Shown here in pieces: positions 2,160 through 48,803 of a stretch of 60,201 nt of DNA; within the stretch, counting starts at the first letter, position 1, and each line of letters starts with the position of its first letter. The stretch comes from an uncultured bacterium. Lineage in GTDB: Bacteria > JAAXHH01. The notes beneath the pieces were generated by a model that saw nothing but the letters and a program-made list of their open reading frames with translations, made no database searches and was not told where the DNA came from. Location of the stretch: contig CAJXCW010000003.1 in assembly GCA_913051705.1 (NCBI GenBank), forward strand, positions 1 to 60,201, in the 5' to 3' direction. A program made the position numbers and the translations under genes.

Positions 2160-2981
2160 CTATGGGGCTGACTGGCGCAGTGCAGCGCTCTCACTGAAAT
2201 CAAGAATGCCTTTGATATACCCTAATTCCGTATCAATAGGCGCTTTCTCCGCACGAATCTGCCGCCGGTTGAAGTAGTGGGCCAATCCACGCAGGTCTTT
2301 GTATGCTTTGTCGATCCTGACTCGGATGGTATTCTTGATAGGCATTTCGGGCATCATTTCCTGTTGGGCATACAGATCTTCTATGAGTTGATGGGCGTCT
2401 ACGAGGGACTCTTTCTCTGTCTGGCGCAGATAAAACGCCCGGGAATGACATGGTCCACAGGTATTTTCTTCGAGCGAGACCAGATCCATGTTGACTTCCT
2501 GCACCTCGTGGCTGCCGTGGCAGGTGACGCAGTTCGGTTCCCATCCTTCATCCGGAAAATCTTCCGTATGGATGTTGGCCTCATTGACAGAATAGGCCGA
2601 TTCGTGGCAGCTTGGGCCGCAGAAATTAGGGACACCCTCCGGACTTGGATCCGATTTAAAACCGTACTCTTCTCCCATGGATACAGTCAGGATGGTGCTC
2701 ATCGGATTTCCGCCATGACACGAATCACAGAAGACGCCGGCGCGAAAATGAACGCTACCGCGCCATTCGGCCACCTGCTCAGAGAGCCGTTCCCCCAGCC
2801 TTTGATGGCACATACTACACGTCTCAAAGAAAGGGCCGTCAAGTTTTTGCCAGCTCTCGGAGCCCTGAGCGTACGACGGGCCCTCCACTTCCTGAACTTC
2901 TTCCTGCGCCCGGGCTGTTCCGATGCACAAGCTCAGCGTCGCCACAACAATGGTTACATAACACCAATAGTTCATTTTCAT
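2160..2981 (-). CDS. Multiheme (penta-heme) c-type cytochrome, signal peptide
   Basis: N-terminal signal peptide. Heme motifs are CSMCH, CDSCH, CVTCH and CGPCH, plus an atypical CGPSCH (CX3CH). It is the last gene of the dehydrogenase/cytochrome operon. Confidence 0.75.
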   Translation of the reverse strand: MKMNYWCYVTIVVATLSLCIGTARAQEEVQEVEGPSYAQGSESWQKLDGPFFETCSMCHQRLGERLSEQVAEWRGSVHFRAGVFCDSCHGGNPMSTILTVSMGEEYGFKSDPSPEGVPNFCGPSCHESAYSVNEANIHTEDFPDEGWEPNCVTCHGSHEVQEVNMDLVSLEENTCGPCHSRAFYLRQTEKESLVDAHQLIEDLYAQQEMMPEMPIKNTIRVRIDKAYKDLRGLAHYFNRRQIRAEKAPIDTELGYIKGILDFSESAALRQSAP

Positions 2982-2996
2982 TCCCGAGGATTCCCC

Positions 2997-4643
2997 CTAT
3001 CCAATCGTTCCTTTTTTCATTTCCTCTATGATGTAGTCGCTTGCACGGAAAGCCAGCGCCTGAATCGTCAGCGTCGGGTTGCTCTTGCCCGATGTAACGA
3101 AACAACTTCCATCAACAACGAATAGATTCTTCACATTATGGGCTTGATTAAACTTGTTCAACACCGATGTTTCCGGATCGTCACCCATACGGCAGGTTCC
3201 CATCAGATGGGCATCGCCTCTCGGGACGCTGTTCCGACCGGACAAGACCTGCCTGGCGCCTGCCGTTTCGAGTAATTCTTTGGCACGATCTCTGAAAAAA
3301 TCACCCAGCTTATGTTCATTCGGATGGACATCGTACGTCACGCGAGGTACCGCCAACCCCCACTTGTCTTTCACATTGGGATCGAGATCGAGCACGTTTC
3401 TTTCCTGAGATAACGATTCCATACTCGTTACCACCATCATATTTTTGTTCCAGTTATCCATGATCCACTTCTTGCGTTTCGGACCCCAGCTCAAGACGCG
3501 CGGCACGTTCATTCTCGAAAAATTAATGGTGCTGCCGTCCCCACGCGGCTCCAGGACGCCACCACCGTAGAACCCGTATTTATCCGGATTCGGTTCGTAG
3601 AAGTCCTGGATAACCCTGGTGTCCATCACGCCCTGATATTCATTAAGGTCTTTATCAAAGAAGGCGCGCACCACCTGGTAATAGTTGAACATGAGATGTT
3701 TGCCGACTCTCCCGCTTCGATTGGCCAGCCCATCCGGAAACGCGGGTGACTGCGACATCTGAAGTAACCGTGGCGACATAACCCCGTTGCCGCACAGCAC
3801 GACGACACGCGATGACAGTTTCACCTCGTTGAGCTTTTCATCAAGATAAATGACCCCATTTGCAAGGCCGTTCTCATCCACCGTAATTTCTCGGACACAG
3901 GCGTTTGAGCGCAGTTCACAATTGCCGGATTTCATCGCCTTCGGCACCATGTTTACCAGGGTGCTCGATTTTGCTTCCATCGTACATCCATATCCTTCGC
4001 AGAATCCGCAGTCCATGCACTTTGCCCGGCCATCGTAGTTCTCGGTTAAGATGGCCATCGGGGTTGGATACGAGTGCCATCCGAGTTTTTTGGCCGCGTC
4101 ATCCGAAATGGCCCCCGAGGCCTTGCGGGTGACCGGCGGCATAGGATACGCTCTTCGCCTCGGCGAGTCGAACGGGTTAGCACCGGCCAGACCGGAGACG
4201 CCGATTTCGTATTCTGCTTTTTCGTAGTAGGGTTCGAGATCCCAGTAATCTAAAGGCCAGTCACGAACGTCAGCCCCTTCAACAGCGCCGAACGAGCTCC
4301 GCTCTTTAAAATCCGATTCGTGGAAACGCCAGGATATACCTGTGTAATGAATGGTCGAACCACCAACGTTGGCCTGCATGTTGATTGAATACATGGGCGC
4401 TGCATCCTCGTCCGCCATTTGCCGATAGGTGTTCGGTTGGTCGTATTTGATTAAGCCCCGCAAATGATGGCACTTTAACTCATCCTGCACGTAGTCACGC
4501 GTCTTGAGCCAGGGCCCCATCTCCAGCGCGACGACCTTCAGCCCCCGTGTGGCCAACTCTTTCATCACGACACCACCGGCGGCGCCGGTTCCGATAACGA
4601 TGACGTCCGGGTTTTCAATTCTGGGATTAGGTAAATGTGGCAT
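2997..4643 (-). CDS. GMC-family FAD-dependent oxidoreductase (dehydrogenase large subunit)
   Basis: N-terminal FAD-binding fingerprint VIVIGTGAAGGVVMKELATRGLKVVALEMG and GMC length (548 aa). GAGGG SD, ATG start. Confidence 0.85.
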   Translation of the reverse strand: MPHLPNPRIENPDVIVIGTGAAGGVVMKELATRGLKVVALEMGPWLKTRDYVQDELKCHHLRGLIKYDQPNTYRQMADEDAAPMYSINMQANVGGSTIHYTGISWRFHESDFKERSSFGAVEGADVRDWPLDYWDLEPYYEKAEYEIGVSGLAGANPFDSPRRRAYPMPPVTRKASGAISDDAAKKLGWHSYPTPMAILTENYDGRAKCMDCGFCEGYGCTMEAKSSTLVNMVPKAMKSGNCELRSNACVREITVDENGLANGVIYLDEKLNEVKLSSRVVVLCGNGVMSPRLLQMSQSPAFPDGLANRSGRVGKHLMFNYYQVVRAFFDKDLNEYQGVMDTRVIQDFYEPNPDKYGFYGGGVLEPRGDGSTINFSRMNVPRVLSWGPKRKKWIMDNWNKNMMVVTSMESLSQERNVLDLDPNVKDKWGLAVPRVTYDVHPNEHKLGDFFRDRAKELLETAGARQVLSGRNSVPRGDAHLMGTCRMGDDPETSVLNKFNQAHNVKNLFVVDGSCFVTSGKSNPTLTIQALAFRASDYIIEEMKKGTIG

Positions 4644-4694
4644 GTGTAGCCCTCATGAACTTTGATTAATCTTTAGATGATGTACGAGAAGTTG

Positions 4695-5345
4695 CTATCC
4701 GGTATAGGGCTCGAACGGAGGATATTCGATCTCAGGCATAGTGGCGTCATAGTACCCGAATGGGGCATCATATCCGAAGGCTTTCAACCCTGGGAAATTC
4801 AGTAACTTCCAGCCTATATCGTTGTAGTTACCACCGTATTGCGGATCTGTAAACATCCCCTCCATGGTATGCCCGATCACATGACGCAGCCAGGTACGGG
4901 GGGGCATATCCGCGTCGGATGGCCAATCAGCCGGCGTCCGGCGTCTGTCCATGGCCGATACAACTTTATTCTGTAGTTCCACAGTTAGTTCGACGAACGG
5001 GGCACCCTGTGCCGCGGTGGCAAACTGATCCAGCCACACCAGTCCCTTATCGTAAATTTCTTTTTCCTCGGCAAGGTGCGTTTTCAGCGACCGGTCGATA
5101 TAGGTGACCACGTGGGCATCTGTTGCGCCGGGTCCGTTTTCATCTGCGGGGAAGATGCATTCGGCCAGTGCTTCCACCGTCAGCCCCTGATGCGTCGTAA
5201 ACGATTCGAACTCACGCGTTTCCTGCGTGTCCTGGGATTTTAAACGCCCGGGCGTACCGATCATACTCAGAGAAATAATGCCACCCGTGGCTATGGCCGA
5301 TCGGGACAAAAATGTTCGGCGTGAGAGATTCGATTTTTTGCTCAT
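4695..5345 (-). CDS. Gluconate-2-dehydrogenase subunit-3-like small subunit with twin-arginine (Tat) signal
   Basis: MSKKSNLSRRTFLSRSAIATGG has the Tat motif SRRTFL. Size (~216 aa) and position, immediately upstream of the GMC flavoprotein, match three-subunit membrane-bound FAD sugar/polyol dehydrogenases. GGAGG SD. Confidence 0.7.
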   Translation of the reverse strand: MSKKSNLSRRTFLSRSAIATGGIISLSMIGTPGRLKSQDTQETREFESFTTHQGLTVEALAECIFPADENGPGATDAHVVTYIDRSLKTHLAEEKEIYDKGLVWLDQFATAAQGAPFVELTVELQNKVVSAMDRRRTPADWPSDADMPPRTWLRHVIGHTMEGMFTDPQYGGNYNDIGWKLLNFPGLKAFGYDAPFGYYDATMPEIEYPPFEPYTG

Positions 5346-5434
5346 GATAAATAACCTCCGGGATCGTAGGAACCCGATGCTTTCACAATATATTTTTGAT
5401 TCGGGGCGGAATTAATACAGGATAGCGGAAACTT

Positions 5435-5641
5435 CTACTCGTCTCTCTTTCCCCACACCAACAAAAGCACGTAATAGAGCACCCCCATGGCCAAACATCC
5501 ACCGCCGAATGTCATGTACCAGATTATCGATGTCGGGTGAGACCAGAACATGGTCAATAATTCGATGGTCAGGCCGAGCAGCACCAGCCCGCCGGCTACG
5601 CGTATACCGCGGTCGAAGGGCATAAGGAGTGAGGATATCAT
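5435..5641 (-). CDS. Small hydrophobic membrane protein (2 TM), hypothetical
   Basis: 68 aa and strongly hydrophobic. Its start overlaps the stop of the upstream cytochrome gene (ATGA-type coupling). Confidence 0.4.
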   Translation of the reverse strand: MISSLLMPFDRGIRVAGGLVLLGLTIELLTMFWSHPTSIIWYMTFGGGCLAMGVLYYVLLLVWGKRDE

Positions 5642-6294
5642 CAGTTTGTGGTCTCCTGCCAGAATTCATCCGGCTCGTAATCATCCAGTTCCTCTATATT
5701 GTGCTGTATATCGTGGCATTTACTTTCCATGCAAGAGAGGACGTTGGTATTGATTCTGGTCAGCATATCCGCTTCTTTCCTATGATGCCGGCTTTCCTCA
5801 TAGCTCCGGGCGTCCTGATGACACTGCAGACATTCGCGGTTGTTGTAGGGTTCGTACAGTTTAATATCCTTTGGCTCCGGCGTATCCCCGATATACTGAA
5901 CATACACATGTTTAAGACCACGTATCTTGGCCGTGATCCCTCCGTACCATACCTGATCGGAATGGCAAACATAACATGATCTATCCTGGGATACGAGGTA
6001 ATTCTGAAAATGATCGGCGGGAACAAACTCGTTGTCATCAACGTGGAGGCTTTTGCCCCAGTCGTCCATGATGTGGCACGACAGGCAATATTCTGTAGTC
6101 GTGGCATGATCACTCTGAATGATACCTCCCATCAGACCGACCGAGATCGGCAAGAGGAAGAGCGCACAGAAACCAACGATCTGCCCGCCTCCATCTTTGA
6201 GGATCGAGGGCTTAATCATAACGAGACAGACCATTAACATCGCCAGCACGATGGGTATGACGATGATAGCTGTTGGAAGAGATGGTTCAGGCAT
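5641..6294 (-). CDS. NapC/NirT/NrfH-like membrane-anchored tetraheme cytochrome c (quinol dehydrogenase type)
   Basis: N-terminal TM helix. Heme motifs are CLSCH, CYVCH and CLQCH, plus an atypical CMESKCH (CX4CH). I prefer the ATG at 6294, which has an AAGGA SD 8 nt upstream, over the TTG at 6333 listed in the track. Confidence 0.7.
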   Translation of the reverse strand: MPEPSLPTAIIVIPIVLAMLMVCLVMIKPSILKDGGGQIVGFCALFLLPISVGLMGGIIQSDHATTTEYCLSCHIMDDWGKSLHVDDNEFVPADHFQNYLVSQDRSCYVCHSDQVWYGGITAKIRGLKHVYVQYIGDTPEPKDIKLYEPYNNRECLQCHQDARSYEESRHHRKEADMLTRINTNVLSCMESKCHDIQHNIEELDDYEPDEFWQETTN

Positions 6295-6316
6295 ACTGGT
6301 TATCCTTAGCGATTGA

Positions 6317-6727
6317 TTACTTCTTGGTTTCAACCTCGGTCTTCATCGAGACCAGCCAGTTCGTTAAGACCTCGAACTCTTCATCCGTGCCACGGAATTT
6401 TTTCTCGTGTTTCTCGCCGTTCTGCTTGTTCTTTTTCTTCAGATACAGCTTCAGCCAATCGATCTCGTGCACTAAACCGACGGCGGACAGATCCGGCGCA
6501 TCCTCATCGATCTCATCAGGCTCCAGGTCTCCGATATCCAGGTCGATTTTCGCTATCTGGACCGAATGACATCCCTGACACTCATGTTCAGTAAAAATAG
6601 CCACCGCCGTGGCCTGATCCTGATCCTGCGCAAGCGATATATCGGTTGAAAACATGCCCACGATGATAAATCCCAACACCGCTGCGGCGCTCGTTAACAT
6701 ACCAGTAAAAGCGACCGTCTTTTTCAT
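6317..6727 (-). CDS. Monoheme cytochrome c with signal peptide
   Basis: Signal peptide, a single CQGCH motif, and an acidic/lysine-rich C-terminus. AGGAG SD 6 nt upstream of the ATG. Confidence 0.6.
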   Translation of the reverse strand: MKKTVAFTGMLTSAAAVLGFIIVGMFSTDISLAQDQDQATAVAIFTEHECQGCHSVQIAKIDLDIGDLEPDEIDEDAPDLSAVGLVHEIDWLKLYLKKKNKQNGEKHEKKFRGTDEEFEVLTNWLVSMKTEVETKK

Positions 6728-13430: not shown

Positions 13431-14162
13431 ATGACGGTTTCTTCTCAACAGAAGCGGTTCTTCGATGATTTCGGGTATATCTTTCTGCCGGGATTAATGA
13501 AAGAAGAAGTGGGATGGATTACAGAAGAATATGAGCGGTTATTTTCCGAGTCAGGTATCGTTCATGATGGGACTAAGCGTTCGAGCCTCGGGCATATCGT
13601 TGAAAAAAGCGAATTGTTGTGCACGTTGCTTGACCATCCGAAGGTGGATGGTTTATTGGCAGGGCTGATGGGAGATGATTATAACTATCTGGGAAGCGGT
13701 GCGGATCTGTATGTGGAAGATGGCCTGTGGCATCCTGATTGCCATGATGCGCCGGTATTGCAGGTCAAATGGGCGATGTATCTGGATCATCTTACCATAG
13801 ATGCGGGTGCTTTACGCGTCGTACCCGGTTCCCATAAACAGGGTTGGGTCGGCAATCTGGATACCGAGTCTCTGTGGGGGTTCGGTATGGAAGAGGTGCC
13901 CTGCGTGGCACCCGATAATGAACCGGGTGATGTCCTGGTCTTCAACCTGCAGACCTTACATAACTCGCTCGGGGGCGGCAAACGGCGCAGGATGTTAAAT
14001 ATGGTAGCCTGTGCCGCCTGCAGAACAGAAGAAGAAATCACCTTCTTAAAAAAGCGGATTCCCAAGACAAGAACGGAACTTCAATGGGAGATCATGCGTA
14101 ACACAGCGCCGCCGCAACGATTGAGGCGTTTGAACCAACTCTGGAAGGTGCTGGGAAGTTAG
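13431..14162 (+). CDS. Phytanoyl-CoA dioxygenase (PhyH)-like Fe(II)/2-oxoglutarate oxygenase
   Basis: PhyH-like N-terminus (FFDDFGYIFLPGL) and an HxD facial-triad candidate (WHPDCHD) with a distal His (LRVVPGSH). Confidence 0.6.
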   Translation: MTVSSQQKRFFDDFGYIFLPGLMKEEVGWITEEYERLFSESGIVHDGTKRSSLGHIVEKSELLCTLLDHPKVDGLLAGLMGDDYNYLGSGADLYVEDGLWHPDCHDAPVLQVKWAMYLDHLTIDAGALRVVPGSHKQGWVGNLDTESLWGFGMEEVPCVAPDNEPGDVLVFNLQTLHNSLGGGKRRRMLNMVACAACRTEEEITFLKKRIPKTRTELQWEIMRNTAPPQRLRRLNQLWKVLGS

Positions 14163-14191
14163 AATCTGATGTCATCCTGCATCCTGTATCC

Positions 14192-14449
14192 TCACCGACC
14201 CAGCAAACTCCGTCCCCACTGCACCGCATAATAGATACCCACGATAATCGCTGCGACGATCAGAATTTTGACGGTCAGGATGGCGACATTCGTCAACAGG
14301 ATGGCGACATACGTCAAAATGATAGAAACCAGAATAGCGCCTGAAACAGCCAGAATCAAAGGGGTGCCGGCCAAATGGTTCTTGATTCCTGCGATCAGTC
14401 CGGTTACGCCACCGACCAGGCAGGAAATGATAACAAGTGATGTGGTCAT
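14192..14449 (-). CDS. Small membrane protein (85 aa, 2-3 TM) with internal 7-aa tandem repeat
   Basis: Strong GAGGAGG SD 9 nt upstream of the ATG. Hydrophobic. A 21-nt tandem duplication encodes LT(Y/N)VAIL twice. It is the last gene of the AOR cluster. Confidence 0.45.
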   Translation of the reverse strand: MTTSLVIISCLVGGVTGLIAGIKNHLAGTPLILAVSGAILVSIILTYVAILLTNVAILTVKILIVAAIIVGIYYAVQWGRSLLGR

Positions 14450-14453
14450 AATA

Positions 14454-14496
14454 AAATTCCTCCTCTGTAGTGATAGGACAAACAGAGGAGGAATTT
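14454..14496 (-). terminator. Perfect 14-bp hairpin, an intrinsic-terminator/attenuator candidate, whose 3' arm contains the SD of the downstream small gene
   Basis: AAATTCCTCCTCTG-15 nt-CAGAGGAGGAATTT. On the minus strand the hairpin is followed by TTTTATT and then the ATG. Confidence 0.5.
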
Positions 14497-14537
14497 TGTT
14501 TCAAATAAATAAAAAATTTGCGTCATTAACCGGTCAT

Positions 14538-15911
14538 CTAAGCGCTTTTATTACTGACAAGCACCGCGTGGGCCGAACGATCTTTACCACCATCCTGGGT
14601 ATGTTGATAGGCACGGTGTGCGGCCGGTGAACCGAGGGTGGTGATCGCCAGCATTTTTTCCGCCGTTTTCGTGGCGACATACGGGCGCCGGATATCGGTC
14701 GGGTTGGTCTGTATATGACCCTTCCAGGCGCCCAGCGAGGTTTGCGCCTGAATCAGGCCCTTGATCATGCCCATATCATTCAGCATAGCCACATCATCTG
14801 CAGGACCGAGAATAATCGCGCCGGAAAGCTGGTCCCCATCCCACAAAAGCTTGCGGTAGAGAGGCCGGCTCGCATTAATAGTTTCGGTCTTCTCCCCCCC
14901 ACTGCTCCAACTGCCGAAGCTGGCGCACTGTAAGCCGCACACATCCAGAATATTCATCAGCAGACTACCGGGATATTCGACATCCTGTCCGGCCATATTG
15001 GCGCCGGCAATCCGTCCGTGATCTACAGCGGTGGTCTGGATGGCATGGATGGCCTGCTGCCCTGTGGACAAATCCGATCCTTCCGCCACATCGCCTGCTG
15101 CATAAATATTGGAAATATTGGTCTGACAACGACTGTTAATGAGGATACCCTCATTGGTGTTGACACCAGAACCATTCAGGAAATCGATATTGGTACGGAT
15201 ACCGGTTGCGACAATGACCAGATCAGCCTGCGTTGAGGAGCCATCGGAGAGTTTTAGTGTTTTCTTGCCGTCGCTGCCATGTTCAATCGCCTGTACACTG
15301 ACGCCGGTATGCGTCCTGACCCCGTGTTCATTAAGCCAGGTGTTGACTAGTGAAGCGCCCTGGGCGTCCAGCATACGCGGCAGCACCTGATTTTCCAATT
15401 CTATCACCGTGAGTCTGGCGCCTATCTTATACATGGCATTCAGGATGATAAAACCGATAAAACCAGCGCCGATGAAAGCCACTTCCGCATCGCCGTCCAT
15501 GGCGGCTACCACGTTTTTCGCGTCGTCCATCGTCCACAGATTGTGGACACCCTCCCCATCGGCGCCCGGTATGGGAAGTGGCTGAGGCGACGAACCGGTA
15601 GCGATTAGCAGATTATCATATTCTACTGTAGAGCCGTTATCGAGTGTCACGGTATTTTCTGAGGCATTAACAGAAGTTACCCGTAAACCAAATTGGGTGG
15701 TCACCCCCAGATTGCTGAAATACCCGTCATCTCCGGTCAGGACCTGATCCACGGGAATGCTCTTTGAGATGTAGTACGGCAAGGCCATACGGGCATAGGC
15801 CGGCTCATCCGAGATCAGGGTTATCGAAGCATCGGCATCATAGCCTCGAATTGTTTCTATGGCGTTTATCCCGCCCGGTCCGCCACCGATAATCACGTGT
15901 CGTGCTGCCAT
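14538..15911 (-). CDS. FAD-dependent pyridine nucleotide-disulfide oxidoreductase (class II, NAD(P)H-linked), candidate AorC-like electron-transfer subunit
   Basis: VIIGGGPGG (FAD) and a second Rossmann segment, EVAFIGAGFIGFI (NAD(P)). I place the start at MAARH with a GGAGG SD 6 nt upstream, rather than at 15944. Confidence 0.8.
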   Translation of the reverse strand: MAARHVIIGGGPGGINAIETIRGYDADASITLISDEPAYARMALPYYISKSIPVDQVLTGDDGYFSNLGVTTQFGLRVTSVNASENTVTLDNGSTVEYDNLLIATGSSPQPLPIPGADGEGVHNLWTMDDAKNVVAAMDGDAEVAFIGAGFIGFIILNAMYKIGARLTVIELENQVLPRMLDAQGASLVNTWLNEHGVRTHTGVSVQAIEHGSDGKKTLKLSDGSSTQADLVIVATGIRTNIDFLNGSGVNTNEGILINSRCQTNISNIYAAGDVAEGSDLSTGQQAIHAIQTTAVDHGRIAGANMAGQDVEYPGSLLMNILDVCGLQCASFGSWSSGGEKTETINASRPLYRKLLWDGDQLSGAIILGPADDVAMLNDMGMIKGLIQAQTSLGAWKGHIQTNPTDIRRPYVATKTAEKMLAITTLGSPAAHRAYQHTQDGGKDRSAHAVLVSNKSA

Positions 15912-15940
15912 ATGCATCCTCCAGGTACAAGTAACAAGCG

Positions 15941-15995
15941 GCAAGTGGCAAGTGGCAAGTTAATGCTTTCACTCTTCACTCTTCACTCTTCACTG
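15941..15995. repeat. Intercistronic heptamer tandem repeats (GCAAGTG)x3 and (TCACTCT)x4
   Basis: Seen directly between the AOR and FAD-oxidoreductase genes. Confidence 0.8.
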
Positions 15996-15998
15996 ATT

Positions 15999-17828
15999 TT
16001 AACCAAGGCCCAATTCCATCAATTTTTCCTGAGTCGGTTTTCCATCCGGAGTCCATCCGCGTGCGGCATAATATTCGGGCAGCATGACATCAAGATTTAC
16101 AGTGACGCCGGCGGAGGGACCTTTCTTGTGTGCTTCTTTCAACAATCGTTCCGGTAAAGAGTCATCTGCCGCCGTGAGGCCGGCTTTCAGATTCCACAGA
16201 CGTTCAATATTCCAGATCCGTTCGCCGATCTTGACAAAATCATCCATGTCATAATCCACGTCCGTTGCGGCCGACAACACGGGAAGAAGATCATCGAGCG
16301 GCGCGCCTGCCGTGGTAAACATACATATGCCGGTTGCATCGTGGGCCGTGGTTCGATTCTGTTCTTCGGCCACCCACTTTGATTTTCCATCGGTGGTATG
16401 CGGATCGTATTCTCCGGATGTTTCAATACCGGGTGTCCAGGCTCTCAAATGACAGGCGCCACGATTGCAGGTAGCAAAGGCGATGCCCATGCCCTGGAAC
16501 CCACGGGGATCATACGCCGGAAATTCCTGCCCCTTGACGCCCATGAAGTATTCAGGATGCTCGAATTTTTCGGTCATGCGTTTGGAGCCTTCGGCCAATT
16601 CGTCGCCGAACCCTTCCCGGAAGCCGGTGGCCTCGGTCATGGCTATGAGCGCTTTCCCGTCACCAAATTTGAGAGGCATGCCGATCTGATCTTCCGAAAG
16701 CAGACCACGTTCGTACATTTCCATGGCCGCGGCCAGGGTCGCCCCCATGGAGATCGGGTCCATACCGAGGTCGTTACACAGATAGTTGGCCATGACAATG
16801 GCGTCCATATCGTCTATCCCGCAGTCGGCACCAAGGGACCACAGATTTTCATACTCCGGTCCTTCGCCGGCGATCTTCCAGTTCCGTGGGTGCATGTTGA
16901 CCATGTATTTGTCGGCATTCGGCGTGACTTGCGTCACCCGACCGCAGGCGATGTTGCAGGCGAAACAGGCCTTGTTGGCAACCAACCATGTATCTTTGAT
17001 CGCATCCCCGTTAATTTTTTCCGTCCCTTCAAACTGTCCCTCCGTAAAGTTACGGGTCGGCAGGCCACCGAAGGCATTAATCAGATCAATCGTAGGTGCG
17101 GTCCCCAGTTCCGTCAAACCCTGACGACCCGGGCTTTCTGCGAGGTGCCCGTGATAGGAGCGGATAGAAGACATATAGTCTTTGGGGCGAGCGATCTGTA
17201 CCCCTTTCGTGCCTCGTACGGCGATGGCCTTCAGGTTCTTGGAGCCCATGACTGCGCCCACGCCGGAACGACCCGCAGCGCGATGCTTGTCGTTTATTAT
17301 TCCAGCAAATCGGACCAGTTTCTCGCCTGCTGGACCGATGCAGGCGACGCGTAATTTCGGCATCCCGGTTTCATCACGGATCGCATCTTCCGTTTCTGAA
17401 ACCACCTTGCCCCACACATTCCCGGCATCCCGTATCTGCACATCGTCATCATTGATCAGCAGATAACAGGGCTTCTCGGCTTTTCCTTCCACAATGACCA
17501 TGTCGTATCCGGCGAATTTCAACTCCGGTCCCCAATGACCACCTGAATTGGACGTCGTAATCGCCCCGGTGAGCGGCCCTTTGGTGACCACCATATAACG
17601 GGCGCCGCAGGACGCATTCGTACCCGTCAACGGACCGGTCGCCATAATCAGCTTGTTCTCCGGACTGAGGGCATCCACACCGGGGTCCATCTCCTCATAG
17701 AGATATTTCGCCCCCAGCCCACGCCCGCCGATATATTCCCGCGCCCATGTTTCATTCAGCGGTTCTCTGGTGATGCGTCCTTCCGTCAGATCCACACGCA
17801 GGATATATCCTGCCCAACCATAAGACAT
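15999..17828 (-). CDS. Tungsten-containing aldehyde:ferredoxin oxidoreductase (AOR family), paralog 1
   Basis: Full-length AOR architecture: N-terminal MSYGWAGYILRVDLTEG, the AOR_N domain, Cys ligands for the [4Fe-4S] cluster, and pterin-binding regions. GGAG SD. Start chosen by analogy to paralog 2. Confidence 0.9.
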   Translation of the reverse strand: MSYGWAGYILRVDLTEGRITREPLNETWAREYIGGRGLGAKYLYEEMDPGVDALSPENKLIMATGPLTGTNASCGARYMVVTKGPLTGAITTSNSGGHWGPELKFAGYDMVIVEGKAEKPCYLLINDDDVQIRDAGNVWGKVVSETEDAIRDETGMPKLRVACIGPAGEKLVRFAGIINDKHRAAGRSGVGAVMGSKNLKAIAVRGTKGVQIARPKDYMSSIRSYHGHLAESPGRQGLTELGTAPTIDLINAFGGLPTRNFTEGQFEGTEKINGDAIKDTWLVANKACFACNIACGRVTQVTPNADKYMVNMHPRNWKIAGEGPEYENLWSLGADCGIDDMDAIVMANYLCNDLGMDPISMGATLAAAMEMYERGLLSEDQIGMPLKFGDGKALIAMTEATGFREGFGDELAEGSKRMTEKFEHPEYFMGVKGQEFPAYDPRGFQGMGIAFATCNRGACHLRAWTPGIETSGEYDPHTTDGKSKWVAEEQNRTTAHDATGICMFTTAGAPLDDLLPVLSAATDVDYDMDDFVKIGERIWNIERLWNLKAGLTAADDSLPERLLKEAHKKGPSAGVTVNLDVMLPEYYAARGWTPDGKPTQEKLMELGLG

Positions 17829-17897
17829 AGCATACTCCATTGAGTGATTGGTGATTTTTTTCATTCACCATTCGCCAATCGCAATCCACCAATTTTA

Positions 17898-19742
17898 TTA
17901 CAGTCCCAACGAGTCCAGTTTTTCCCTGGTCGGTTCGCCGTCGGCGCTCCATCCGCGTAGTTCATAGTACTCCGGCAGCATTTCGCCGAGCCTGTTGACC
18001 TCGCCCTTGGTGGGGCCCGCGGGAATGGGTTCTTCGAGGAGTCGTTTAGGTAAGGTGTCGTCTTTTCCGGTGAAGCCGGCCTTTTGATTCCATATCCGCT
18101 CAATATTCCATACCCGCTCTCCCACTTCCATCAGTTTGGGCACGGAATAGGGTATGCCGGTGACCGCCGCTATCTGGGGTTGCATTTCTTCCAGGCCGAC
18201 GCCAAAGGTCAGGAAAAGACATAATCCGGTCGAGTCAACCGTAGAGGTGGCGTCCTGGAAAATCTTGGTTATTTCGGCTTTGCCTTCGGTGACCGCCGGA
18301 TCCATCTTTTCCGGTATCCCCAGGATTTCAGGCGCCACGGTATAACTTTTCAAATGGCAGGCGCCGCGGTTAGAGGTCGCGTAGCCGAGGCCCATACCCT
18401 GGATGGCTCGGGCATCGTAAGCGGGGAATTCCTGACCACGTACGCCCATGAAAAGTTCAGGATGCTCGAACTTCTCCGTCATACGCTTGGACCCCTCGGC
18501 CAGTTCGTTGCCGAACCCTTCCCGATAGGCGGTCCATTCAGCCATGGCCACGAGGGCATCGGCGTTTCCAAAATTAAAAGGCATGCCGGTCTGATCGTCG
18601 TTGAGGATGCCTTTCTCATACATTTCCATCGCTGCGGCCAGGGTTGCACCGAACGATATGGGATCCATCCCCAGTTCATTGCACAGCGCACCGGCCTTAA
18701 TCAACGCATCCAGATCGTCGATACCACAATCGGCGCCCATGGCCCAGGCATTTTCGTATTCCGGACCTTCCACCGCAATCTTCCAGTTATGTGGTCGGGT
18801 CGTGACCATAAACTTGTCCTGTGCTTCACCCGGCAACTGCGATACTCGACCACAGGCCATGGTACAACTGAAACAGGCTTTGTTTGATACCAGACGGGTA
18901 TCCGCCAGCGTCTCGCCACTGAACTTGTCCGCGGTTTCCATCTGTGCAAACTGATGGTTGTTGGCCGGCATGGCGCCGCTCTCATTGATCACATTGACAA
19001 GGACCGCTGTGCCGTAGGCGGCCAGCCCTTCACCCGTGATCGGATGTTCGGCCAGTTTGCTCTTCATCTCCCACATGGCGCCCATGAGTTTCTGCGGGTT
19101 TGCTACCGGCACGGCGCCGGTTCCGCGGACGACGATGGCTTTCAGGTTCTTGGAGCCCATGACGGTGCCGACGCCGGAACGACCTGCGGCGCGATGCCGA
19201 TCATTGACAATAGCAGCAAAACGGACCAGATTCTCGCCGGCGGGACCGATACAGGAAATGACCGCATCATGCACCCCGAATTCCTCACGGACCATATCAT
19301 CTGTTTCCCAGACGGTTTTGCCCCAGAGGTGTTCGGCGTTACGAATCTTTACCTGATCATTATATATTGATATATATGAGGGCTTCGGTGCTTTGCCTTC
19401 GAGTATCAGCATGTCGTAGCCGGCGAACTTCAACTCCGGTCCCCATGTCCCGCCCGAGTTGGACGTAGTGATGGCATTGGTCAGCGCCCCTTTGGTCACG
19501 ACCATAAACCGGGCGCTTGTAGAGACATTGGTACCGGTCATCGGGCCGGTGGCAAAGATCATCTTATTATCCGGGCTCAGTGGATCTGTGGTCGGATCCA
19601 TTTCTTCCGACAGATATTTGGCGCCGAGGCCACGCCCGCCGATAAAATCTTTGGCCCACTCCATATTGAGCGGCTCTTTCGTTATCTGGCCGGTGGTGAG
19701 ATTGATGCGTAACACCGTGCCTATCCATCCGCCTGTACTCAT
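17898..19742 (-). CDS. Tungsten-containing aldehyde:ferredoxin oxidoreductase (AOR family), paralog 2
   Basis: 614 aa, about 65% identical to paralog 1 over the N-terminal 150 aa (MSTGGWIGTVLRINLTTG...). Its start overlaps the ferredoxin stop (ATGA). Confidence 0.9.
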   Translation of the reverse strand: MSTGGWIGTVLRINLTTGQITKEPLNMEWAKDFIGGRGLGAKYLSEEMDPTTDPLSPDNKMIFATGPMTGTNVSTSARFMVVTKGALTNAITTSNSGGTWGPELKFAGYDMLILEGKAPKPSYISIYNDQVKIRNAEHLWGKTVWETDDMVREEFGVHDAVISCIGPAGENLVRFAAIVNDRHRAAGRSGVGTVMGSKNLKAIVVRGTGAVPVANPQKLMGAMWEMKSKLAEHPITGEGLAAYGTAVLVNVINESGAMPANNHQFAQMETADKFSGETLADTRLVSNKACFSCTMACGRVSQLPGEAQDKFMVTTRPHNWKIAVEGPEYENAWAMGADCGIDDLDALIKAGALCNELGMDPISFGATLAAAMEMYEKGILNDDQTGMPFNFGNADALVAMAEWTAYREGFGNELAEGSKRMTEKFEHPELFMGVRGQEFPAYDARAIQGMGLGYATSNRGACHLKSYTVAPEILGIPEKMDPAVTEGKAEITKIFQDATSTVDSTGLCLFLTFGVGLEEMQPQIAAVTGIPYSVPKLMEVGERVWNIERIWNQKAGFTGKDDTLPKRLLEEPIPAGPTKGEVNRLGEMLPEYYELRGWSADGEPTREKLDSLGL

Positions 19743-20230
19743 GCTGTGCTCCCTTCATCTATGGATGCCAGATAAGAGGCATTCACTTTTTCAGCCCAAC
19801 CACCCAGCCAATCGGCCGAGTCGCTATCGGTATATTCGATGGCTCCGGTCGGACAGGCGGTTACACAGGCTGGATCTCCATCGCAAAGATCACATTTGAA
19901 GGCTTTTTGTGTATCCGGATTATAGAATATCGTGCCGAACGGACAGGCAATGGTGCAGAGGCTGCATCCCACACAGTTGGCATCGCCGACGATCTTGGCG
20001 CCGGTATTCGAATCAATGCTGATGGCATTGACCGGACAGGCATTCATACACCAGGCTTCATCACATTGAAAGCAGGTATACGGCGCATAGCTGGCCTGTT
20101 CATCAAAGATATTGACCCTGATCAGAGATCGTGAGGGTTGGAACATACCAGTTTGTACCCAGGAGCATGCCAACTCACACTGCATGCATCCTGTGCATTT
20201 ATCGGGAATAATGCGCAGAGACTTAGCCAT
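19739..20230 (-). CDS. Polyferredoxin with four [4Fe-4S] CxxCxxCxxxCP motifs (AorA-like electron-transfer subunit)
   Basis: Four motifs: CTGCMQCELAC, CFQCDEAWCMNACP, CVGCSLCTIACP and CDLCDGDPACVTACP. AGGGGG SD. It is the first gene of the cluster. Confidence 0.85.
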   Translation of the reverse strand: MAKSLRIIPDKCTGCMQCELACSWVQTGMFQPSRSLIRVNIFDEQASYAPYTCFQCDEAWCMNACPVNAISIDSNTGAKIVGDANCVGCSLCTIACPFGTIFYNPDTQKAFKCDLCDGDPACVTACPTGAIEYTDSDSADWLGGWAEKVNASYLASIDEGSTA

Positions 20231-20681
20231 GCGACCCCCTTCGTTTTAGATTGTTGATTGTCTGATTGCAAGGCATCATGGTTCTATCATACCGTTCATG
20301 ATACGCCTGATATCAATGCATCAATAAAATGAATGGTTTTTCAGCGAATAAATGTTACGTTTCTATCATGGTGATAAAATGAAGGCCAGCACTTGGGCAT
20401 GATTAATCACGTACACAACCTTCTTATATGTGGTTAATACCCATAGTCTAATTGATTCAGAAGGCCATGTCAATAATATTATATTAAATAAATCTATATT
20501 CAATAATGGCCTGTATATTGAAGATACTAAATTTGATAATGACCGTTATTTTGTTTCCTATATGTGATATTCTAAACTTGACTTTCCAGGTGGAATTCTG
20601 AGTAATTGGTTCAGTCCCCTCAAAATCCTTAAACAGGCATCATGAGTCGATGGGTATCAATTTGTATCAAATGGGAGACCG
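20231..20681. promoter_or_regulatory. 450-bp AT-rich divergent intergenic control region (AOR operon on minus, cNMP-domain gene on plus)
   Basis: Markedly AT-rich relative to flanking DNA. No individual promoter elements could be assigned with confidence. Confidence 0.4.
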
Positions 20682-21002
20682 ATGGTTATGGCCGGGGAAC
20701 TTTCTACACATGAGAAAATTCAATTTCTGAGTGCGGTATCACTTTTTTCCGGTCTGGACTACGAACAACGAGAAAAGATCGCTTCCGTGGTTAAAAGTGA
20801 TTTTTATTCCGTAGACAGCTATATCTGCAAAGAAGGCGAAGCTGGTGATTCCATGGATCTGATTGTGGAAGGGACGGTACGTCTTGAGGTCGACGGTCTT
20901 CCTATCAGTACGCAAAGAGGCCAGGGAGAATGCATCGGAGAAATGGCGTTGATCGACATGGGACGGACGCCTATCGTTGTAATAGAAAGGCCAATGATTT
21001 GA
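20682..21002 (+). CDS. Stand-alone cyclic-nucleotide-binding (cNMP/Crp-like effector) domain protein, possibly truncated
   Basis: cNMP-binding beta-roll motifs (GEAGDSMDLIVEGTV...GECIGEMALID) but only 106 aa, with no HTH. GGGAGA SD. Confidence 0.5.
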   Translation: MVMAGELSTHEKIQFLSAVSLFSGLDYEQREKIASVVKSDFYSVDSYICKEGEAGDSMDLIVEGTVRLEVDGLPISTQRGQGECIGEMALIDMGRTPIVVIERPMI

Positions 21003-21028
21003 ACATATAGTCCTAAGGACAATTCCTA

Positions 21029-21577
21029 ATGGTAATAGTACGTTATTTTATCGGTCTGGCGCTTATTATGAACTCGATGACATCTATATCGGCTCAGGAA
21101 TTATCCTTAGGCGGTCGGCTTTTCTGGCCGGTGGTTTTGAAGATGGTCCGATCGGATTTCCCGGATGTATCTCAGATTCCAACGGATACCCTGAGCGTCT
21201 GGCTGCAAGAAGAGGAAACAGAAAACAAACCTCTGTTGCTCGATGTCAGGACCACGGAAGAGTTTGGGGTCAGTCATTTGAAAGAGGCGCATTTAACGCC
21301 CTCTGAAAAAGAAGCGGCGACTCTGTTGGCCGATGTGCCCAAAGATCGGCGTATTGTCGTATACTGTTCTGTCGGATACCGTTCCTCGGAACTGGCCGCC
21401 GGATTGATGAAACAGGGGTTTACCAATATCCACAATCTGGAAGGCTCCCTGTTTGCCTGGGCAAACGAAGGCCGTCCGGTCTACCATAACGGTCAGGCCG
21501 TCAAGGTCGTTCATCCCTACGGTGGTATATGGGGAAAGCTGCTTAAAGAGGCGTTGAGATGGAAAGAACCGGAATAA
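21029..21577 (+). CDS. Rhodanese-domain sulfurtransferase with signal peptide
   Basis: Signal peptide and active-site loop VVYCSVGYRS (CxxGxR). Confidence 0.75.
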   Translation: MVIVRYFIGLALIMNSMTSISAQELSLGGRLFWPVVLKMVRSDFPDVSQIPTDTLSVWLQEEETENKPLLLDVRTTEEFGVSHLKEAHLTPSEKEAATLLADVPKDRRIVVYCSVGYRSSELAAGLMKQGFTNIHNLEGSLFAWANEGRPVYHNGQAVKVVHPYGGIWGKLLKEALRWKEPE

Positions 21578-28148: not shown

Positions 28149-28221
28149 GCCGAGGTAGCTCAGGCGGTAGAGCAGTGGACTGAAAATCCATGTGTCGACA
28201 GTTCGACTCTGTCCCTCGGCA
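28149..28221 (+). tRNA. tRNA-Phe (anticodon GAA), 73 nt, CCA not encoded
   Basis: Cloverleaf folded by hand: 7-bp acceptor GCCGAGG/CCTCGGC, D-arm GCTC-AGGCGGTA-GAGC, anticodon arm GTGGA-CTGAAAA-TCCAT (anticodon GAA), 5-nt variable loop, and T-arm GACAG-TTCGACT-CTGTC. It is highly similar to bacterial tRNA-Phe. Confidence 0.9.
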
Positions 28222-30663: not shown

Positions 30664-32154
30664 ATGTCAGAACAAGAGGTAATGGTAGATTCTACTAAAG
30701 CACCGCCATGTACCATTGTCATATTTGGCGCGTCGGGTGATCTGACGCGGCGTAAGCTGATTCCCGCGCTTTATAGCCTGGGGTGCGGTGACCGACTATC
30801 GAAGGCGACGCAGGTGGTCGGGGTGGCGCGGACCGATATGAGTGATGAGGCGTTTCGAGAGAATCTGCTTGCCGGCGTAGAAGCACACGGTAGACAACAA
30901 GCCTGTTTGCCCTGGGATACTTTTTCAGGTCAATTATCTTATGTATCGGGATGGTACGATGAGGCTGAAACATATGCGCGGCTAAAGCGCAAGTTAGATC
31001 AATTAGATGAAACGGCCGGTACGCAAAATAACCGATTATTCTACCTGTCTACGCCGCCTGCATTATATCCGATTATCATAGAGCAGCTCGGTCAGGCCGG
31101 ATTAAATGAAAGTGCGTCCGGCTGGACGCGTATTATTGTAGAAAAACCGTTCGGACGTGATCTGGCTTCGAGTAATCTGCTTGATGAACAGATTCATGCG
31201 GTATTTCGTGAACGGCAGGTCTATCGCATCGACCATTACCTTGGAAAAGAAACCGTCCAGAACCTGTTGACCTTTCGATTTGCCAATACCATTTTTGAAT
31301 TGATGTGGAACCGCAATTATGTTGATCACGTCCAGATTTCGATGACAGAAAGCGTGGGCGTGGAACATCGGGCCGGGTATTATGATCAAGCCGGTGTCGT
31401 GCGGGATATGTTTCAGAACCACCTGCTGCAGTTACTGACCCTGGTGGCTATGGAGCCGCCGGTGGCTTTTAATTCCAAAGAAGTGCGGGATGAAAAAGTC
31501 AAGGTGTTACAGACCATACGTCCGCCGGAACCATCGGAAGGTGTCTGGGGACAATATATTGGATACCGCCAGGAAGAGAACATCGTCAAAAATTCCGAGA
31601 CGCCCACCTACATGGCTCTGAAACTCTATATAGACAACTGGCGATGGAAAGGGGTACCGTTCTACGTTCGCACGGGTAAAAGCCTGGCAAAAAAGACCAC
31701 GGAAGTCACCCTGCAATTTAAACAAGTGCCCCATTTGTTGTTCCTGGACAATGAAGATGTCACCGCCAACCGTCTTTCGCTGTTTATTCAGCCCAATGAG
31801 GGGATGCACCTCAATTTCGAGACTAAAATTCCGGGCGTCGGCATGCGCACCAAATCCGCCAGTATGGAATTCGACTACGAAGATCTGTTTGGCACTGATG
31901 TGCTGCCGGATGCGTATGAACGGTTGTTGCTCGATGCCATTCAGGGCGACTCTTCTCTCTTTGCGCGCAGTGATGAGATCGAAAGAGCCTGGGAACTGGT
32001 TGATCCGATCCTGAGGGCCTGGGAGCAAGGCCGGGCGCCGTCTCTGGCCTTTTACTATCCAGGGACCTGGGGGCCGTCCGAAGCCGACCGTATGATCCAT
32101 GATGATCAACGATTATGGCTGACCCATTGTGAAGATCAGGGGAAGGGGGGGTGA
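30664..32154 (+). CDS. zwf: Glucose-6-phosphate 1-dehydrogenase
   Basis: IVIFGASGDLTRRKLIPALYSL, the DHYLGKE active-site motif, and 496 aa. Confidence 0.95.
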   Translation: MSEQEVMVDSTKAPPCTIVIFGASGDLTRRKLIPALYSLGCGDRLSKATQVVGVARTDMSDEAFRENLLAGVEAHGRQQACLPWDTFSGQLSYVSGWYDEAETYARLKRKLDQLDETAGTQNNRLFYLSTPPALYPIIIEQLGQAGLNESASGWTRIIVEKPFGRDLASSNLLDEQIHAVFRERQVYRIDHYLGKETVQNLLTFRFANTIFELMWNRNYVDHVQISMTESVGVEHRAGYYDQAGVVRDMFQNHLLQLLTLVAMEPPVAFNSKEVRDEKVKVLQTIRPPEPSEGVWGQYIGYRQEENIVKNSETPTYMALKLYIDNWRWKGVPFYVRTGKSLAKKTTEVTLQFKQVPHLLFLDNEDVTANRLSLFIQPNEGMHLNFETKIPGVGMRTKSASMEFDYEDLFGTDVLPDAYERLLLDAIQGDSSLFARSDEIERAWELVDPILRAWEQGRAPSLAFYYPGTWGPSEADRMIHDDQRLWLTHCEDQGKGG

Positions 32155-32237
32155 AAGGACGAAAGGATGAAAGGGCAAAAGGATGAAAGGACGAAAGGGG
32201 GATTAGATTCTTCCTCTCTTCCTTTCTTCCTTTCGAT
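32152..32237. repeat. Purine-rich octamer tandem array (GAAAGGAYG)x6 followed by its pyrimidine complement, forming a long imperfect hairpin after zwf
   Basis: GTGAAAGGACGAAAGGATGAAAGGGCAAAAGGATGAAAGGACGAAAGGGGG ... TTCCTCTCTTCCTTTCTTCCTTTCG. Confidence 0.7.
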
Positions 32238-47740: not shown

Positions 47741-47765
47741 GTTACGCGACCTTTGCGTAACATCA
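47741..47765. terminator. REP-like palindrome, family A, followed (on the minus strand) by T-rich (TTTGTAC)n heptamers, an intrinsic terminator candidate
   Basis: GTTACGC-gaccttt-GCGTAAC. The adjacent 47716-47740 is GTACAAAACACAAAATACAAAGCAC. Confidence 0.6.
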
Positions 47766-48791
47766 TTCATGAATGGTGATCAACGTCTTTAGTGAATCCC
47801 TGGCCGCTGCCGTCACTTGAATCCCTTTTTCCGTCTCCTCGATCGGAAAACGATGGGTGACGACCTGATCAGCCGTGATGACGCCTGATGTAATCAGATC
47901 CAGCGCCATACGGGTATCATTCGGCCCACATGAATAACTGCAAACGATGGAAATTTCATCGAAGTAAATATCGAACGGTTTAAACGAAAGGACGGCATCC
48001 TCAGGCGAAGACATGAAAAACAGGACCGTCCCGCCCTTACCGGCACAGGTCAATCCTGAATTCATCGCGGGCACACTGCCCGGCCCTACAATGACGACAT
48101 CCGCTTTAAACCCATCCGTCAACTTTTCTACAGCCTTCGTGAGATCCTCCTGTTCAACATGGACCACATGATCCATACCCAATTCCAGAGCTTTGTCAAG
48201 ACGGTAAGGAACCATGTCGGCCCCAATGATGGTTTTGGCGCCGTAATGTCGCGCGACCATCCCATTTAACTGGCCCATAAATCCCAGACCGATGATTAAG
48301 ACTACATCGCCTGGACGAATATTCACTTTTTCAATCGCTTTAACAGAACAGGCTACGGGTTCGATCAACGTGCCATCGTCAAGAGATACCGAATCAGGCA
48401 AGATCAAGGTATCATATCGAAGATTTATTTCAGGCACACGAACATATTCCGCGATGCCCCCCGGATCAAGATGTGTTTTTTTCCAGGTGGCGCACAGCGT
48501 AAAATTGCCGCGCCTGCAATGACGGCACCGATAACAGGGGGCATGGTGATGTATAAAAACCCGGTCGCCAATCGACAGGCTTCCTACTTCATCTCCGAGT
48601 GCCTCAATGATCCCGGCCGGTTCATGGCCGACGACGATCGGCGCTTTACGGCGAATATACCAGGGGGTCACGTCCCCACTGCATATCCCGCACCGATACA
48701 TTTTCACCAGCGCATCACGAGGACCGATTTCAGGAATCGGTAGATCCTCAATTCTTATATCGTCCATATCATAAATCTTCGCTGCTTTCAT
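47763..48791 (-). CDS. Zinc-dependent medium-chain alcohol/polyol dehydrogenase (MDR family; sorbitol/threonine-DH-like)
   Basis: Catalytic Zn Cys/His (CGICSGD), structural Zn CxxCxxCxxxxxxxC (CYRCRHCRRGNFTLC), and the GLGFMGQ Rossmann motif. Confidence 0.85.
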   Translation of the reverse strand: MKAAKIYDMDDIRIEDLPIPEIGPRDALVKMYRCGICSGDVTPWYIRRKAPIVVGHEPAGIIEALGDEVGSLSIGDRVFIHHHAPCYRCRHCRRGNFTLCATWKKTHLDPGGIAEYVRVPEINLRYDTLILPDSVSLDDGTLIEPVACSVKAIEKVNIRPGDVVLIIGLGFMGQLNGMVARHYGAKTIIGADMVPYRLDKALELGMDHVVHVEQEDLTKAVEKLTDGFKADVVIVGPGSVPAMNSGLTCAGKGGTVLFFMSSPEDAVLSFKPFDIYFDEISIVCSYSCGPNDTRMALDLITSGVITADQVVTHRFPIEETEKGIQVTAAARDSLKTLITIHE

Positions 48792-48803
48792 ATCAACCTT
48801 TCA

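Follow-up and report, generated by a model that had tools for sequence, protein, structure and literature searches.

Gene organization of the locus

We analyzed a 60,201-nucleotide stretch of DNA from an uncultured bacterium (contig CAJXCW010000003.1 of the GenBank assembly GCA_913051705.1, positions 1 to 60,201; the whole stretch is hereafter called the window). The subject of this study is a minus-strand locus at 14538–20230 of the window, which appears to be a four-gene operon with the order aorA, aorB (encoding AOR2), aorB' (encoding AOR1), and aorC, presumably transcribed together, and which probably encodes a tungsten aldehyde oxidoreductase (AOR) with two different catalytic subunits. 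The ORF listing contains five consecutive minus-strand open reading frames (ORFs) in 14192–20230. The features of the region, from upstream to downstream, are as follows.

20445..20473, minus strand: promoter-like site TTGACA-17-TAGACT, approximately 215 nt upstream of aorA (weak evidence)
19739..20230, minus strand: AorA-like polyferredoxin, 163 aa
17898..19742, minus strand: AOR2, AorB of the canonical type (Y468/F511/F514 pocket), 614 aa, AFOR_N and AFOR_C domains
17829..17897, minus strand: AOR2/AOR1 spacer, 69 nt
15999..17828, minus strand: AOR1, second AorB, Planctomycetota-like type (W468/F511/A514 pocket), 609 aa, AFOR_N and AFOR_C domains
15912..15998, minus strand: AOR1/aorC spacer, 87 nt
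14538..15911, minus strand: AorC-like FAD/NAD-binding subunit, 457 aa, Pyr_redox_2 domain
14453..14497, minus strand: stem-loop, probable operon terminator (predicted fold)
14192..14449, minus strand: 85-aa hydrophobic ORF, no family match

A previous reading of the window from its sequence alone (the sequence-only reading) had listed a ferredoxin, two AORs, a FAD/NAD(P) oxidoreductase, and an 85-aa ORF. All five ORFs were found, and a Pfam search confirmed the domains: Fer4 families in the polyferredoxin, AFOR_N and AFOR_C in both AORs (E values of 1e-84 to 1e-144), and Pyr_redox_2 in the FAD protein (6e-55). The longest ORF of AOR1 spans 15999–17864, with a probable start at M13 (17828) preceded by GGAG, and that of the FAD protein spans 14538–15944, with a probable ATG start at 15911 preceded by GGAGG. 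The shorter versions agree with the gene calls of near-identical metagenome contigs, which give 609 or 610 aa for AOR1 and 457 aa for the FAD protein. The translational coupling proposed in the sequence-only reading holds for the polyferredoxin gene, which lies directly upstream of AOR2 and whose stop codon overlaps the AOR2 start codon in an ATGA sequence, but no other overlap exists, and the two spacers listed above separate the remaining genes. At least 22 independent metagenome contigs of marine and deep-sea origin show the same gene order.

Similarity to known tungsten enzymes

The three subunit types and their order are the same as those of AorABC from Aromatoleum aromaticum EbN1 (Protein Data Bank (PDB) entry 8C0Z; PMC6365974, PMC10413684). 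The AorABC-like composition suggested from the sequence alone was thus borne out: all three subunit types match 8C0Z as the best or near-best solved relative, with identities of 62% (A), 57% and 54% (the two B subunits), and 38% (C). The window differs in possessing two divergent aorB genes, whereas A. aromaticum has only one. Enzymes of this kind belong to type N, a known class that is bacterial only and accounts for 26% of 444 clade-87 WORs (Feng et al. 2025, PMC12318220); the description of the type includes no operon that combines two WorL genes with a single WorS and a single FAD subunit. In the literature, our coverage of which was incomplete and is no proof of absence, we found no aorABC operon with two aorB genes, and nothing relevant on AORs in Latescibacteria or Planctomycetes. 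The locus appears to encode a two-aorB version of the already known AorABC/type-N enzyme.

Another solved relative is WorABCSL of Acetomicrobium mobile (9MQX), the WorL of which is the best solved relative of AOR2 and the WorSL units of which form a nanowire. WorABCSL contains the bifurcating BfuABC module, whereas the window possesses an AorC-type flavoprotein in its place. The electron-bifurcating WorABCSL type was rejected as the identity of the locus because no BfuABC genes are present in the window.

The AorA-like polyferredoxin

The polyferredoxin contains 16 cysteines arranged as four CxxCx(2-5)CxxxC motifs, in agreement with the four [4Fe-4S] clusters counted in the sequence-only reading. 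Its best match in the PDB is 8c0z_C (1.4e-56, alignment reaching residue 151), and it also matches WorS (9mqx_E, 5e-32). In A. aromaticum, deletion of the C-terminal extension of AorA abolishes the filaments (PMC10413684), and the extension is absent from the Moorella-type enzyme, which is thought to be non-polymerizing. The extension is present in the window protein (DW..GWAEKVN), aligned to 8c0z_C beyond Asp137, and W141 and W145 within it are invariant in 29 polyferredoxin homologs. In the same homologs, F42 and W60 are invariant and P9 and A95 are conserved in at least 90%; the window protein keeps all four residues. The presence of the extension is consistent with filament formation by the window enzyme.

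The two catalytic subunits

AOR1 and AOR2 are 59% identical to each other. The best PDB match of AOR2 is 9mqx_D (778 bits), with 8c0z_A at 740 bits, and that of AOR1 is 8c0z_A (667 bits), with 9mqx_D at 655 bits. Residues are given in the AorB numbering of PMC10413684, for which the AorB sequence was rebuilt from the printed alignment; every quoted residue number matched the stated amino acid. Fifteen residues of the W-cofactor, the proximal [4Fe-4S] cluster (FS0), and the catalytic site (R75, N92, G94, R181, A182, C295, C298, C302, E331, D361, Y443, H464, D504, C509, and F511) are identical in AOR1 and AOR2 and are also kept in all 88 type-N AorBs compared. Both AORs accordingly present the four FS0 cysteines, the W-bis-MPT and Mg contacts, and the catalytic Glu331, His464, and Tyr443, and both would be expected to contain tungsten. 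The dN/dS ratios are 0.04–0.10 for AOR1 and 0.04–0.16 for AOR2, showing strong purifying selection on both genes. Judging from the residues and the selection, AOR1 and AOR2 are divergent subunits that are both maintained and appear to be functional.

The differences between the two subunits are found at the aromatic clamp, which holds benzoate in 8C0Z by means of Y468, F511, and F514. The clamp residues are Y468/F511/F514 throughout the AOR2 clade (25 of 25 sequences). In the AOR1 clade together with the Planctomycetota-type sequences, residue 468 is tryptophan in 41 of 41, and residue 514 is alanine, threonine, serine, or valine. AOR1 itself has W468, F511, and A514, corresponding to the replacements Y468W and F514A with respect to AOR2 and also to A. 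aromaticum AorB. In addition, AOR1 exhibits a three-residue deletion after about position 475, and 19 subtype-signature positions separate its type from the other; the deletion and the signature positions cluster at 233–277 and 447–503. The suggestion in the sequence-only reading that two AORs expand the range of substrates gains support from these pocket differences, but the substrates themselves can only be presumed to differ.

An alternative is that AOR1 and AOR2 serve different conditions, such as tungsten versus molybdenum supply, oxygen tolerance, or a preferred direction (acid reduction or H2 oxidation versus aldehyde oxidation), with one of them working at a time. Tungstate is scarce in oxic sea water, a point in favor of such a division. 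Paralog pairs specific to molybdenum or tungsten that are differentially expressed occur in other metallopterin enzyme families (PMC12096430), and the A. aromaticum AOR is able to oxidize H2 and reduce acids as well. However, the AOR family is almost exclusively tungsten-dependent, every contact to the W-cofactor is identical in AOR1 and AOR2 while the differences cluster at the substrate clamp, and the genes lie in an apparent single operon in which no regulatory element was found. We regard this alternative as improbable.

The FAD/NAD subunit

The best PDB match of the FAD protein is 8c0z_E (1e-76), the next solved relative being at 3e-44. The protein keeps Arg41, Met42, and Arg179 of AorC and the FAD-contacting glutamine (residue 292 here and 294 in AorC), and these four residues are invariant in 16 homologs. 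The second Rossmann strand terminates in an acidic residue, Glu171; by what is generally known of Rossmann folds, this argues for NAD rather than NADP as the electron acceptor.

The FAD protein does not reach the cut-off of any NCBIfam equivalog model. The best model is PadH (280 bits versus 475). The PadI model was matched at the locus with 103 bits versus a cut-off of 700, and only in the N-terminal ferredoxin part of PadI. An identity as phenylglyoxylate dehydrogenase (PadH/PadI) was rejected on these scores. The group of CoA-disulfide reductase, NADH oxidase, and peroxidase was likewise rejected (TIGR03385, 177 bits versus 579); the redox-active cysteine of the CoA-disulfide reductase group is presumably located near residue 42–43, where the window protein has Met42 (YARMALPY). 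NirB was rejected as well: TIGR02374 gave 215 bits versus 578, matching profile positions 2–381 of 794, and neither a sirohaem nor an Fe-S domain was detected. The sequence-only reading had named clustering with CoA-disulfide reductase or nitrite reductase as the outcome that would speak against its AorC assignment; no such clustering was observed.

The possibility that the FAD oxidoreductase, as a disulfide reductase- or nitrite reductase-type enzyme, or one of the AORs, as a decaying or non-catalytic protein, stands outside the complex draws on the scores below all the NCBIfam cut-offs and on a JGI annotation of 'nitrite reductase large subunit'. It appears highly improbable, because AorC leads the other solved relatives by more than 30 orders of magnitude and its signature residues are invariant, because the match to the NirB model is confined to the flavin/NAD part at the N-terminus and methionine occupies the redox-cysteine site, and because ferredoxin, AOR, and FAD genes are syntenic across phyla (see below). 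As for the AORs, strong purifying selection acts on both, and neither has lost any catalytic residue.

Origin and distribution of the second aorB

The distribution of the operon was surveyed in the best 80 of 198 species-level loci, which were retrieved via AorC homologs and in which the subunits were mapped by tblastn (individual loci are given L numbers). Ferredoxin, AOR, and FAD genes are syntenic in 67 of the 80 loci, which belong to several phyla. The arrangement ferredoxin–AOR2–AOR1–FAD was found in 21 loci, labeled Latescibacterota, Gemmatimonadota, Zixibacteria, or just 'bacterium'; some isolate names among these 21 metagenome-assembled genomes (MAGs) suggest sponge or coral hosts. Another 46 loci (Planctomycetota, Methylomirabilota, Binatia, Rokubacteria, and others) have a single AOR between ferredoxin and FAD, and six of them are relatives of the window lineage possessing the AOR2 type only. 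In the remaining 13 loci, no AOR was detected in the retrieved stretch. Among the 80 loci, the two-aorB operon was seen only in the Latescibacterota/Gemmatimonadota-labeled lineage of the window, and the arrangement of two catalytic paralogs sharing one electron-transfer module is indeed as unusual as the sequence-only reading had supposed. The gene tables of L005 and L007 omit AOR1, but an AOR1 pseudogene in these loci was ruled out, since tblastn found an intact ORF, 99% identical, in both.

Phylogenetic trees were constructed by the distance-based neighbor-joining method. AOR1 is the sister of Planctomycetota AorB with a bootstrap value of 96/100, and a search of 5.8 billion proteins found its next named relatives in Planctomycetes/Gemmataceae (70–72% identity). 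A clade of AOR1 and AOR2 appeared in 0/100 bootstraps, which rules out a recent tandem duplication. The sequence-only reading had called the catalytic subunit duplicated and had proposed a phylogeny of the two paralogs as a check. This phylogeny led us to abandon the term: AOR1 is not a local tandem copy but a member of another AorB sublineage, that of the Planctomycetota type. In the trees of AorA and of AorC, the window lineage falls with non-Planctomycetota relatives. A chimeric fusion of [aorA–AOR2] with [AOR1–aorC] is thereby ruled out, because the AorC tree agrees with the AorA tree in this placement. From these trees, AOR2, AorA, and AorC appear to have a common history, with AOR2 as the resident subunit, and AOR1, an AorB of the Planctomycetota type, appears to have joined them between aorB and aorC in an ancestor of the lineage, via transfer or a very old paralogy.

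Single-aorB Planctomycetota operons (for example, L038 and L075) encode an AorB that is sister to AOR1, possesses W468 and a small residue at 514, and is located between AorA and AorC; the AorA and AorC of these operons are not the closest relatives of those of the window. The subtype with W468 and a small residue 514 was found in 19 of the 19 Planctomycetota-type AorBs compared (mostly from Planctomycetota-labeled MAGs) and in the window lineage, and constitutes an uncharacterized AorB subtype. Marine samples were the source of several MAGs carrying it, and in some cases the isolate name points to a sponge or coral host.

Some other arrangements were observed in the survey. Three Binatia loci possess, approximately 4 kb upstream of the type-N operon, a second, distant AOR-family gene of 28–29% identity (L056 3038–5575, L066 3024–5552, and L071 3029–5557); each AOR has its own ferredoxin, unlike in the shared-AorA arrangement. 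In Gemmatales and some other Planctomycetota operons (L038, L040, L045, L051, L075, and L086), aorB and aorC are separated by a gap of 0.6–2.2 kb; the gap of L038 (8942–9961) contains ORFs of 130 and 208 aa that show no evident relationship to AOR. The 13 loci without a detected AOR (L046, L054, L065, L068, L084, and L090; L044, L059, L067, L077, L079, L085, and L088) encode AorC homologs of 51–56% identity with an AorA-like gene directly upstream and no intervening AOR, or with neither AorA nor AOR in the stretch. The AorA/AorC module of these loci may serve other partners, or the AOR may be encoded elsewhere.

Proposed reaction and assembly

The gene content, homology, residue conservation, phylogeny, and purifying selection described above make it probable that the locus encodes a cytoplasmic NAD-linked tungsten AOR of the AorABC type (type N, clade 87), in which AorA–AOR1 and AorA–AOR2 protomers would share one AorC. 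An aldehyde would be oxidized to the acid at the W-bis-pyranopterin site of either AorB, and the electrons would leave AorB via FS0, run along the four AorA clusters, and reach the FAD of AorC, which would hand them to NAD+. The AorAB protomers of the model enzyme are stacked on a single AorC via AorA–AorA contacts. A mixed filament is expected for the window enzyme because there is a single aorA gene for two AorBs and polymerization occurs via AorA in the model enzyme. The AorA–AOR1 and AorA–AOR2 protomers would then be stacked in mixed order on one AorC cap, and the outcome would be a nanowire with two kinds of catalytic subunits and a broader range of aldehydes and acids.

The enzyme subunits carried by the filament of hydrogen-dependent CO2 reductase (HDCR) are of two kinds, hydrogenase and formate dehydrogenase. 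In this filament, polyferredoxins form a nanowire, C-terminal helices mediate the filamentation, and active enzyme subunits are attached (PMC10413684); active enzymes mounted on a polyferredoxin wire thus have an earlier example in HDCR. It differs from the present system in that its backbone proteins HycB3 and HycB4 are not orthologous to AorA and its catalytic modules are unrelated enzymes, not paralogs. We tentatively propose that an AorA wire carries AorBs with the Y/F/F pocket and AorBs with the W/F/A pocket on a single NAD-reducing AorC, so that two classes of substrates might pool their electrons, or electrons might be transferred from site to site. In the latter variant, one AorB would oxidize an aldehyde or H2 and the other would reduce an acid, involving neither NAD(H) nor ferredoxin in free form.

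The competing explanation for the assembly is that each AorB forms a homotypic complex of its own, Aor(A-AOR1)nC or Aor(A-AOR2)nC, from common pools of AorA and AorC, the two being co-expressed isoenzymes. AorC and neighboring protomers also contact AorB in 8C0Z, and the identity of AorB could therefore bias the assembly; AOR1 and AOR2 differ at 41% of positions, and the heptamer hairpins between the genes (described below) could uncouple their expression. On the other hand, polymerization of the model enzyme rests on AorA's C-terminal helix, and here a single AorA is encoded on the same apparent transcript as both AorBs. In addition, no sequence feature enforcing sorting was found. We consider homotypic complexes the main alternative, less likely than the mixed filament.

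Several observations weigh against the assignment to an AorABC-type enzyme with protomers of two kinds. The AlphaFold model of the polyferredoxin shows a helix at 140–160, but with low confidence (pLDDT 41.6). The AorB insertion with Pro287, which contacts the AorC tail in 8C0Z and is present in A. aromaticum AorB, is absent from all the AorBs of this group, including both of the window, and the C-terminus of the FAD protein is different from that of A. aromaticum AorC and longer by approximately 40 residues. Nucleation may differ from that in 8C0Z because of these two changes. Genes for tungstate uptake, pterin synthesis, and MoaD/MoeB were not found in the 60-kb window (33 large ORFs were scanned in addition to precomputed tables); this check for tupABC and moaD/moeB-type pterin genes had been proposed in the sequence-only reading. 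The Pfam tables of the window likewise contain no ThiS/MoaD family. The MoaD-like genes aorD and aorE of the A. aromaticum aorABCDE operon, which are an accessory feature and not a part of the enzyme, are not found after aorC at the window locus, in L011, or in L035. Furthermore, AOR1 seems to be dispensable, because the close relatives L025 and L031–L033 carry AOR2 alone. Finally, the trees are neighbor-joining trees, and the survey covers only the best 80 of the 198 loci.

The oxygen tolerance of AorABC-type enzymes, their use of NAD, and their ability to reduce carboxylic acids make them attractive, and the AorABC filament is a rare case of an enzyme-decorated protein nanowire. An operon with two catalytic subunits per backbone offers a direct test of whether such wires carry mixed catalytic modules. 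The mixed wire, if true, would represent in nature what the subunit-swapping idea in PMC10413684 envisages for engineering. If the two AorBs are ordinary co-expressed isoenzymes, the operon would be a modest addition to a known family.

Spacers, repeats, and operon limits

Both spacers between the aor genes are built of heptamer arrays, the left and right arrays being partly reverse-complementary and folding into periodic hairpins. The AOR2/AOR1 spacer consists of an ATTGGTG-like array, a run of A, and a CACCAAT array, the two arrays being mutually inverted. The CACCAAT unit is present in 1–3 copies in near-identical contigs, which gives gene-start offsets of 70, 77, or 84 nt. The predicted hairpin of this spacer (−16.9 kcal/mol, z −1.5) is not significant alone. 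The AOR1/aorC spacer consists of (AGTGAAG)x4, followed by (CTTGCCA)x2-3 with degenerate units and then the GGAGG ribosome-binding site; its periodic hairpin is at −28.5 kcal/mol (z −2.5), and the number of CTTGCCA copies varies between strains. Between near-identical marine contigs, the copy number differs by whole heptamers.

Similar 7–8-nt tandem arrays were found at 14173, 20249, 21608, 26212, 26894, 27995, 32153–32234, 33029, 35347, 45680, 47670, 47718, and 49850, many of them between ORFs, and the CACCAAT dimer occurs seven times in the window versus 0.75 expected. The sequence-only reading was thus correct in describing short spacers filled with heptamers, but the arrays are not specific to the locus because similar ones occur at many other sites of the window.

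No terminator-like sites above the shuffled-sequence count were found in the internal spacers. The stem-loop after aorC at 14453–14497 has a lower stem of 16 bp and two further pairs, followed by UUUUAUU; its predicted energy is −28.5 kcal/mol (z −4.8), and 0 of 200 shuffled sequences folded as well. It is probably the terminator of the operon. On the upstream side, the promoter-like site at 20445–20473 (10/12 matches) is located in a 451-nt AT-rich intergenic region, and such sites are no more common than in shuffled sequences. An Rfam scan of 13900–21100 gave no match at E ≤ 1, the sole match in the window being a tRNA at 28149. For lack of an Rfam match near the locus, the idea that a riboswitch or another known RNA precedes aorA was rejected.

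The 85-aa ORF and the surrounding genes

The sequence-only reading had listed the 85-aa membrane protein as the last member of the gene order. The ORF has no Pfam or NCBIfam family, and its ribosome-binding site, GGAGGA, is located in the 3' arm of the terminator-like stem-loop. In the survey, it was detected only in the near-identical contigs L001–L008; it is absent after aorC in L011, where a convergent gene is found instead, and in L035. Nine weak-to-moderate metagenome matches were obtained, seven of which are small proteins (67–89 aa), and one homolog is located behind a rhodanese gene rather than behind aorC. A 21-nt tandem duplication at 14276–14317 within the ORF gives a repeated heptapeptide, and the substitutions in it are too few for a judgment on selection. 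A role as a membrane anchor is not supported, and the ORF is considered a neighbor rather than a subunit, because of the hairpin preceding it, its absence from relatives, and the rhodanese-linked homolog.

The gene for a cNMP-binding protein upstream of the operon was rejected as a conserved regulator, as it is not conserved beside the operon in L011; conservation was not seen for the upstream genes in general either. Elsewhere in the window, the minus strand of 2160–6727 encodes a multihaem cytochrome c (c7/c3-like), a GMC oxidoreductase, a gluconate 2-dehydrogenase subunit-3-like protein, and a NapC/NirT-type cytochrome, and this cluster looks like a membrane-linked dehydrogenase system. At 47763–49838, 28 kb from the aor operon, two adjacent genes encode zinc-type alcohol dehydrogenases, which could make or consume aldehydes.

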